From a virus (lineage: Duplodnaviria > Heunggongvirae > Uroviricota > Caudoviricetes): a stretch of DNA of 34,254 nucleotides. Below the pieces are notes generated by a model. The model saw only the letters and a list, made by a program, of their open reading frames with translations, searched no databases and was not told the DNA's origin. Below, piece by piece: positions 5,498 through 5,840 of this stretch. Numbering within the stretch: position 1 is the first letter of the stretch; the number at the start of each line of letters is the position of its first letter. A program made the translations under genes and the position numbers. The DNA is taken from IMG/VR virus record IMGVR_UViG_2529292908_000011. One strand, written 5' to 3'.

Positions 5498-5603
5498 ACA
5501 GCCTTCCCCTGAATAAATTAACCGCCACTTGCCATTCCGTACAGAAGTCGGATATCCTTCGCCCGAAAAGCATGAAACACATTTCTGCCATGCTAAAGAG
5601 AAA

Positions 5604-5635
5604 CCCCGGTATCAGCAGATACCGGGGTTTTCTTT
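5604..5635 (+). terminator. hairpin terminator (usable on both strands) in the I-J intergenic insert
   Basis: Perfect 10-bp stem CCCCGGTATC-agca-GATACCGGGG followed by TTTTCTTT on the plus strand and TTTCTCTTT on the minus strand. Confidence 0.45.
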
Positions 5636-5702
5636 CATGCCCACCGATAATCCTGTTGGTTAAAACCGGAAATGGCATAAAAATTCTGAATATCTTCACA
5701 TT

Positions 5703-5730
5703 TTCACAAACTGACCGTGGCGCGTATAAT
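5703..5730 (+). promoter_or_regulatory. candidate sigma70 promoter antisense to the tail operon (-35 TTCACA, 16-bp spacer, -10 TATAAT)
   Basis: ttcaca at 5703-5708 and tataat at 5725-5730, read directly; no ORF downstream before the terminator at 5797-5834. Confidence 0.3.
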
Positions 5731-5796
5731 TTCTCTGCGTTAATTTTTTTGTCGTGATATAAGAATAATTCCTTACACTTAATCTTCGTAACTCTC

Positions 5797-5834
5797 CCGC
5801 AGTTCCTGTCCGCGATCACTGCGGGATTTTTTTA
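5797..5834 (+). terminator. plus-strand intrinsic terminator in the I-J gap
   Basis: CCCGCAG-N15-CTGCGGG followed by ATTTTTTTAT. Confidence 0.4.
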
Positions 5835-5840
5835 TTCTTT

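Follow-up and report, generated by a model that had tools for sequence, protein, structure and literature searches.

In this study, we analysed the gap between the tail genes I and J in a 34,254-nucleotide (nt) stretch of lambdoid prophage DNA (IMG/VR record IMGVR_UViG_2529292908_000011, Caudoviricetes), which in its full length is referred to here as the window. The gap extends from position 5498 to 5840 (343 bp) and has a G+C content of 42% as compared with 52.5% for the window. On the plus strand, and thus against the two minus-strand tail genes, it contains a promoter followed by a factor-independent terminator; a second hairpin lies closer to J. Judged by its sequence and its homologues, it is very likely that the gap holds a self-contained small RNA (sRNA) gene of ~97 nt, which belongs to one family with PasB and EcOnc22-24 of pathogenic Escherichia coli and forms an sRNA 'moron' placed in reverse in the tail operon, with a product that would be Hfq-dependent and act in trans. 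The feature is probably a real and functional sRNA gene.

A preliminary description of this DNA, made from the sequence alone, had reported a non-coding gap of ~340 bp without a credible open reading frame (ORF), and both statements were borne out. The ORFs of 113, 94 and 44 aa in the gap have no Pfam or PHROG match and their frames are broken in homologous gaps by length differences of 1 and 5 nt, on which grounds a protein-coding gene was dismissed. The same description took I and J to be contiguous in lambda, which is inexact, as a 60-bp spacer with a hairpin but without an sRNA cassette separates the two genes there. Compared with lambda, the true insert is mainly a cassette of ~155 bp.

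Homology to PasB and EcOnc22-24

PasB, the pathogenicity-associated sRNA B of enteropathogenic E. coli (EPEC) O127:H6 strain E2348/69, has been confirmed by northern blotting and RNA-seq (Pearl Mizrahi et al., 2021, Sci Adv, PMC8550237). In Table S6 of that study it is listed as an 83-nt RNA on the minus strand of NC_011601 (1466343..1466261) with the northern probe AATCCCGCAGTGATCGCGGAGCT. It was recovered in 37 RIL-seq interactions and showed log2 fold changes of -6.8 and -2.4 in an hfq deletion, and the targets of the Pas sRNAs belong to both the core and the accessory genome (PMC8550237). We found that PasB is located in the I-J gap of the E2348/69 prophage PP6, antisense to the tail genes, and that its 3' end (1466261) is separated from the I stop codon by 5 nt (end of I at 1466255).

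The window cassette has the I-J gap, the orientation and the closeness to the I stop codon in common with PasB; in the window, 7 nt lie between the RNA 3' end at 5833 and the stop codon. Both loci have the promoter arrangement TTCACA-16-TATAAT, and a 20-nt block upstream of it is identical to that of E2348/69. The 3'-terminal 25 nt of the window RNA, TCCGCGATCACTGCGGGATTTTTTT, are the same as the PasB 3' end and match the published northern probe, and over the RNA body, which is 74% identical, the two share the U-run, the A-rich tract, a CUCCUU-like block and AUCUUC. They differ at several positions of the central pairing region, which reads UUCCUUACACUUAAUCUUCGU in the window and CUCCUUCACAUUGAUCUUCAU in PasB, and in the left part of the gap, where the window has a 186-bp module and the PasB locus a different one of ~85 bp.

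The second set of homologues comes from enterohaemorrhagic E. coli (EHEC) O157:H7 Sakai, in which EcOnc22, EcOnc23 and EcOnc24 have been described as Hfq-CRAC peaks with a northern band of ~85 nt that is destabilised without Hfq (Tree et al., 2014, Mol Cell, PMC4104026, Table S2). They map to the I-J gaps of the Sakai prophages Sp15, Sp14 and Sp11, respectively. The published coordinates refer to an older version of the Sakai genome, and after a shift of +139 to +143, measured on AgvB1, the peaks would sit on the RNA body of the cassette; their offset from J is identical in all three prophages. The three copies are identical to each other, have the same cassette architecture and are 74% identical to the window RNA, from which they differ in the 5' part, the terminator loop, the -10 element (AATAAT) and the short left module alongside. 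EcOnc22-24 have not been linked to PasB in the source consulted for the latter, as the PasB row of Table S6 names no EHEC homologue (PMC8550237). It is for these homologues only that a transcript, Hfq dependence and many RNA partners are on record in the literature.

A covariance model was built from eight cassettes, each at most 76% identical to the window RNA and including PasB and EcOnc22, with the window sequence and its close relatives left out and the terminator stem as the only structure input. In the 34-kb window this model gave a single match, on the plus strand at 5737-5833 (62 bits, E = 4e-10), which covers model positions 1-98 of 98 and begins where transcription should start according to the -10 element. 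At the promoter, TTCTGAATATCTTCACATTT...TATAAT in the window corresponds to the family block TCTGA..T.TTCACA.TT with the -10 element 16 nt downstream, and the cassette ends with the family terminator CCCGCAG...CUGCGGGA followed by at least six U. The position in the I-J spacer of a lambdoid prophage, against the tail operon and with the 3' end near the I stop codon, is likewise that of the family. The unit also has the features of a moron, namely a promoter and a factor-independent terminator of its own, a place between genes that are neighbours in lambda, and an atypical G+C content. The preliminary description had proposed a small RNA of ~95 nt from the plus strand at about 5737-5834, and this proposal is now supported by homology, because the unit is a full-length homologue of two experimentally validated RNAs that come from the same gap.

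Promoter, RNA body and terminator

The near-consensus promoter and the hairpin with a T-run behind it, which had both been pointed out previously, were recovered with programs as well. In a consensus scan, the promoter (5703-5730, plus strand) has 11 of 12 matches to the sigma-70 consensus, and a site of this quality is present in only 0.8% of shuffled versions of the gap. Across the 34-kb window, two sites with at least 11 of 12 matches were observed, compared with 0.32 expected from dinucleotide shuffles. The other one is also a TTCACA-16-TATAAT site with 11 of 12 matches, at 21519-21546 (plus strand) inside a minus-strand ORF (21347-21688); it lacks the flanking blocks of the cassette and, within that ORF, is probably a chance occurrence.

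The terminator repeat begins 67 bases downstream of the promoter and consists of two 9-bp arms (5795-5803 and 5818-5826) that are 100% complementary, followed by seven T at 5827-5833. Its predicted folding energy is -15.7 kcal/mol (z = -4.1). Between promoter and terminator, the U-run and the A-rich tract (5744-5769) are candidate Hfq contact sites according to known binding rules, as Hfq binds ARN and U-tract sequences. The region between the A-rich tract and the terminator is the candidate seed; it takes in CUCCUU and AUCUUCRU, the internal blocks that are best conserved in the family. For PasB, conservation alone has led to the proposal of a seed in the single-stranded part that directly precedes the terminator (Zhu, Shabalina & Storz, 2026, bioRxiv 10.64898/2026.05.13.724894). 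The coordinates of these elements and of the neighbouring genes are given in Table 1.

Table 1. Coordinates of the features found or predicted in the I-J gap of the window and of the two genes next to it
Feature	Position	Strand	Details
Tail tip gene J, N-terminal fragment	4802-5497	minus	Pfam FNIII-A_GpJ
J ribosome-binding site (RBS), GGGGAAGG	5498-5510 region	minus	5 nt before ATG
Left module (J leader)	5498-5683	unstranded	186 bp; contains the J RBS and a 13-bp hairpin
Second hairpin with A-rich and U-rich flanks	5592-5639	unstranded	terminator-like on both strands
A/T-rich tract, ATAAAAAT	just upstream of 5684	plus
pasB-like promoter	5684-5736	plus	-35 TTCACA 5703-5708, 16-nt spacer, -10 TATAAT 5725-5730
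Upstream block, TTCTGAATATC	within 5684-5736	plus	nearly invariant; belongs to promoter part
Predicted primary transcript, PasB-family sRNA	5737-5833	plus	97 nt; covariance model match and alignment with PasB
5' U-run	5744-5750	plus	position conserved across the family
A-rich tract, three A-R-N triplets, AAGAAUAAU	5761-5769	plus	position conserved across the family
Candidate target-pairing (seed) region	5769-5794	plus	UUCCUUA 5769-5775 (anti-Shine-Dalgarno-like); AAUCUUCGU 5781-5789
Intrinsic terminator	5795-5833	plus	stem UCCCGCAGU/ACUGCGGGA, then seven U
Tail assembly gene I	5841-6521	minus	Pfam Lambda_tail_I, 1.8e-16; PHROG tail assembly, <=1e-79; stop codon 5841-5843

Conservation of the cassette

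The sequence anatomy, homology, synteny and conservation of the window cassette could all be observed directly. For the comparison we used a family sample of 18 distinct cassettes from 14 loci, and 17 of the cassettes were put into an alignment that starts at the promoter. All 17 have the block TCTGA..T.TTCACA.TT unchanged, and their RNA bodies are 58-93% identical to that of the window. Conserved across the cassettes are further the -10 element, the sequence GTTA at the RNA start, the U-run, the A-rich A-R-N tract, CUCCUU, AUCUUCRU and the terminator, CCCGCAG...CUGCGGGA followed by six to eight U, and the sequence between these blocks varies. When folded individually, all 18 cassettes have a 3' stem-loop with a U-run, and they measure 90-104 nt between the predicted start and the last U of this run.

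This last figure bears on a different explanation, raised already in the preliminary description, according to which the promoter and terminator are the shell of a decayed moron, left behind after loss of a passenger gene and without a function of their own. A low G+C content of the gap would fit such a history, and the gap does accept protein morons. In strain TB4328, in which gene I is truncated, a sodC (superoxide dismutase) moron is found directly upstream of a PasB-like RNA body that lacks the cassette promoter, and therefore the I-J slot can also take up protein-coding genes. This sodC gene has a terminator of its own, however, and sits outside the cassette unit, and none of the 18 cassettes was seen to carry a gene within the unit, where ORFs were not scanned separately. 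An empty shell would also not be expected to keep a spacing of 90-104 nt across 18 diverged cassettes, or to conserve internal blocks while the positions around them vary, and the homologues are abundant, Hfq-dependent RNAs with many partners. We therefore regard a decayed shell as highly improbable, and this earlier suggestion as unsupported.

In an RNAalifold analysis of the 18 cassettes no consensus fold was found, because the 5' terminator arm of one subfamily is shifted in the alignment. The cassette is conserved, with matches in 1841 of 5426 complete E. coli genomes. Several points weigh against the assignment to a functional PasB-type sRNA gene. The missing consensus fold is one of them, and the 18 cassettes have no secondary structure in common in their 5' part. 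The 5' end of PasB as annotated from read coverage (83 nt) lies ~15 nt further downstream than the start expected from the -10 element, which makes the mature 5' end uncertain here; if the window RNA were trimmed like the annotated PasB, its 5' end would fall near 5750 and its length would be ~84 nt. The shift applied to the Sakai coordinates was measured at 1.94 Mb and not at the three EcOnc loci. Among the matches listed there is no RefSeq annotation at the cassette, and no Rfam family matches it. On the side of the targets, no common motif has been reported for PasB (it has no entry in the motif table of PMC8550237), and the targets of EcOnc22 are given as unknown in a 2021 review.

Distribution in Escherichia

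The region 5400-5950 of the window is found at 99.6% identity in CFT073, S88 and further extraintestinal E. coli, and at least 80% of it is covered in 1445 of the 5426 complete genomes. The cassette itself (5690-5840) is more widespread, and the 1841 genomes in which it is matched carry up to eight copies each, with identities of 73-100%. Matches to the window variant, which we also call the CFT073 type, number 646 records at 95% identity or more (~12% of genomes), and the examples among those listed include CFT073 and S88, which are urinary-tract and bloodstream strains, and an ST131 isolate. In the listed RefSeq and phage records there is no RNA or regulatory annotation at this place, the rows showing either no feature or the edge of a tail assembly gene.

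At those loci examined that have both I and J, the cassette always lies between the two genes, and it is also kept where J or I is missing or truncated. The window itself provides an example, as its J gene lacks ~2.6 kb of internal sequence in comparison with CFT073, whose J gene is matched only at 4862-5497 and 4302-4743 of the window; the window prophage would therefore be unable to make a normal tail tip, and the adjoining sRNA cassette is intact. In strain S1-CAM-01-A, a cassette 100% identical to that of the window stands next to an intact J. On the other side of the gap, the gene I coordinates in Table 1 are those of the longest ORF, and the RefSeq homologues at loci with 99.6-100% identity are 193 aa long with a later start.

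Some I-J gaps contain tandem arrays of mutually divergent cassettes that all have a promoter block and a terminator of their own, with two cassettes in strain SMBL, three in SCU-171 and four in O104:H21 CFSAN002236. At least 80% of the three-cassette array is covered in 15 complete genomes, and the same holds for the four-cassette array in 67.

When one genome of each species was scanned for the promoter...terminator pattern, Escherichia albertii was the only species returned, apart from two short contaminant-like contigs, and on this basis the family appears to be confined to Escherichia. The two contigs, from Parendozoicomonas haliclonae (460 bp) and Streptomyces flavalbus (3408 bp), match E. 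coli prophage tail DNA, with the cassette included, at 95-96% identity, and are probably assembly contamination.

Proposed mode of action

For the window variant, expression, Hfq binding, seed and targets are predicted from the sequence and from what is known of the homologues. According to the mechanism that we propose, the sigma-70 promoter, which looks constitutive, would drive the ~97-nt RNA in the lysogen independently of the late promoter, and the RNA would end at its own strong intrinsic terminator just before the I stop codon. Hfq would stabilise the RNA through the 3' U-tail and possibly also through the A-R-N tract AAGAAUAAU, and the single-stranded central region (~5769-5794) may then pair in trans with host and prophage mRNAs. 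Since this central region differs from that of PasB, the set of targets may differ as well.

The orientation of the cassette also allows for another role, in which the sRNA is mainly a cis-antisense regulator of the tail operon. A duplex with the late I-J mRNA would then be cut by RNase III, or J translation would be blocked, so that the sRNA tunes J output or delays tail assembly; in the opposite direction, the sRNA could be titrated by the late mRNA, which would serve as its sponge. Such an RNA would be fully complementary to a late transcript reading through the gap, with which it is convergent, and all single-cassette loci examined have it in a fixed position beside I and J. However, it overlaps no coding sequence or RBS, with the J RBS being ~240 nt away, and it differs in this respect from cis-antisense RNAs of the lambda OOP type in that the predicted RNA is wholly within the spacer. 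PasB was recovered with 37 partners, and Pas targets are found in both genome compartments (PMC8550237). The cassette is, moreover, intact in the window in spite of the 2.6-kb loss from J, and other cassettes persist where J or I is missing or truncated. We conclude that antisense action on the late I-J mRNA may occur as a side effect but is unlikely to be the main role. The term 'antisense' used in the preliminary description thus applies to the orientation of the RNA rather than to an established mechanism; the homologues are Hfq-bound and trans-acting, and the RNA overlaps no coding sequence.

The left module and the second hairpin

The remainder of the gap, between the J start codon and the cassette, is the left module, which also serves as the leader of J. 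The strong hairpin with U-runs on both strands, which had previously been noted here, was confirmed, with perfect 13-bp arms at 5601-5613 and 5618-5630 around a 4-nt loop. With the flanks AAAGAGAAA and TTTTCTTTC it gives a hairpin followed by a U-run on either strand (z = -6.6 and -5.1). In the lambda I-J spacer (15445-15504) a sense-strand hairpin, AAACCGCC-UGCG-GGCGGUUU, is followed by a U-rich stretch, and in E2348/69 and Sakai a different hairpin with a U-run on the tail-sense strand is found at the same relative place just upstream of J. Because lambda, E2348/69 and Sakai carry hairpins at the same position, the hairpin 5601-5630 is most likely a native intercistronic, terminator-like hairpin upstream of J that is separate from the sRNA unit, as far as can be judged from sequence comparison. 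It looks as if a terminator-like hairpin just upstream of J is a positional constant of lambdoid tail operons, and we know of no function assigned to it. In the lysogen, the hairpin may insulate the cassette and shield the sRNA promoter from plus-strand read-through from upstream, and during lytic growth the Q-modified polymerase would read through it.

The left module occurs at 95% identity or more in 1446 of the 5426 E. coli genomes, divergent copies were not found, and in different prophages it is paired with different sRNA variants. The window has a G at position 5670, where nearly all other copies have a T (CCGGAAATGG versus CCGGTAATGG), and this is its only difference from the majority sequence of the module.

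It is conceivable that the left module gives rise to a second plus-strand small RNA of ~75 nt, running from ~5565 to ~5640 and antisense to the J leader. A promoter-like sequence, TTGCCA-18-TATCCT (9 of 12 matches), is present at 5529-5558, the segment 5562-5646 folds as two stem-loops followed by a U-run (z = -6.6), and the spacing to the cassette is similar to that seen in the tandem arrays, where the terminator of an upstream cassette precedes the next promoter by 50-80 nt. The -10 element is poor, however, and sites with 9 of 12 matches are common by chance (four found versus 1.3 expected in 2.5 kb). The uniformity of the module means that conservation cannot separate a constraint on structure from one on sequence, and it is thus uninformative on the proposed fold. 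In lambda and in the alternative left module the hairpin would terminate transcription on the tail-sense strand only, and no plus-strand promoter was noted by eye at these loci, where no promoter scan was run. The Hfq-CRAC peaks that were checked map elsewhere, though Sakai Sp11, Sp14 and Sp15 carry the other module. On balance, we doubt that this second RNA exists and prefer the interpretation of the hairpin as part of the native J leader.

Relation to other known systems

Among the known phage elements, the cassette resembles the lambdoid 'morons' (Juhala et al., 2000, as cited in PMC4104026), which are likewise extra units between conserved phage genes, with their own promoter, a factor-independent terminator and a lower G+C content. 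It is unlike them in that the passenger is an RNA of ~97 nt rather than a protein gene and that it is oriented against the flanking operon.

Another parallel is formed by AgvB, AsxR and EcOnc03, the anti-sRNAs of Shiga toxin (Stx) and other lambdoid prophages (Tree et al., 2014, PMC4104026). Like the cassette, for which Hfq binding is predicted, these are Hfq-bound prophage morons with their own promoter and terminator in a fixed lambdoid slot, and like the cassette family they combine a conserved 3' part with a variable targeting part. They differ in their slot, which is downstream of PR'/Q, and in their length (51-60 nt), and no sequence similarity was seen. AgvB and AsxR (Rfam RF02702 and RF02703) were rejected as candidates for the gap, as they occupy this other slot and their models gave no match, either in the window (gathering threshold) or in 5300-6000 (E <= 10). 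The gap as a whole has no Rfam family match at the gathering threshold, and at E <= 10 only weak terminator-like matches were obtained in 5300-6000.

Further candidates were also set aside. The sRNA svsR of prophage NC-SV is placed at the 3' end of cI and not in the I-J gap, HnrS (EcOnc10-12) is a different RNA of 66 nt, and EcOnc33 and EcOnc54 (Sakai Sp6), which were considered as counterparts of a left-module RNA, are located near lysis genes and next to an antirepressor gene rather than in an I-J gap.

The I-J spacer as a possible sRNA slot

The kind of RNA described here is already known through PasB and EcOnc22-24; the window variant we did not find described in the Pas and EcOnc literature. 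The published Pas survey used BLAST with a word size of 28 and more than 75% query coverage. The longest exact word common to the window and PasB is 25 nt, and therefore such a search would not have seeded on the window variant. In the same survey, PasB was found to be the least diverse of the Pas sRNAs, and tandem duplication was rejected for the duplicated copies of PasA and PasD; tandem cassette arrays are not described in it. Our relaxed searches point to a family with far greater diversity than had been apparent in that survey.

We tentatively suggest, as a possibility for which the odds are somewhat below even, that the I-J spacer is a dedicated slot for swappable sRNA cassettes. Such cassettes would combine a near-invariant scaffold of promoter and terminator with a fast-diverging targeting region, recombine independently of the flanking modules and pile up in tandem to two to four copies; they would form a larger family that includes PasB and EcOnc22-24, and the CFT073 type would have a regulon of its own. 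This picture departs from the published view of PasB as the least diverse Pas sRNA and of the PasA and PasD copies as not derived from tandem duplication. If it is true, the sampling so far has touched two members, PasB and EcOnc22-24, of a much larger unrecognised family, and the CFT073-type variant, which is common in extraintestinal E. coli, has a regulon distinct from that of PasB.

Through the cassette family, PasB of EPEC is connected with EcOnc22-24 of EHEC, which had been discovered independently of it. As about a third of the complete E. coli genomes carry the cassette, a frequent and seemingly 'empty' gap in the tail operon receives a name and a candidate Hfq-dependent function. The consequences would be a better annotation of prophages and a candidate regulatory link from prophage to host in extraintestinal pathogenic E. 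coli (ExPEC).

Other small RNAs in the window

The window contains further matches to known small RNAs. The Rfam family IS009 (RF02111) gives a full-length match (221 bits) on the minus strand at 132-330, inside a minus-strand ORF of 191 aa (98-673), and IS009 has been reported as a frequent neighbour of PasB (Zhu et al., 2026, bioRxiv 10.64898/2026.05.13.724894). The sok antitoxin RNA is matched at 22520-22695 on the minus strand (112 bits), and the DicF sRNA at 29870-29921 on the plus strand, in full length (76.7 bits). Counting sok and DicF together with the cassette, the prophage element therefore carries at least three small-RNA genes.

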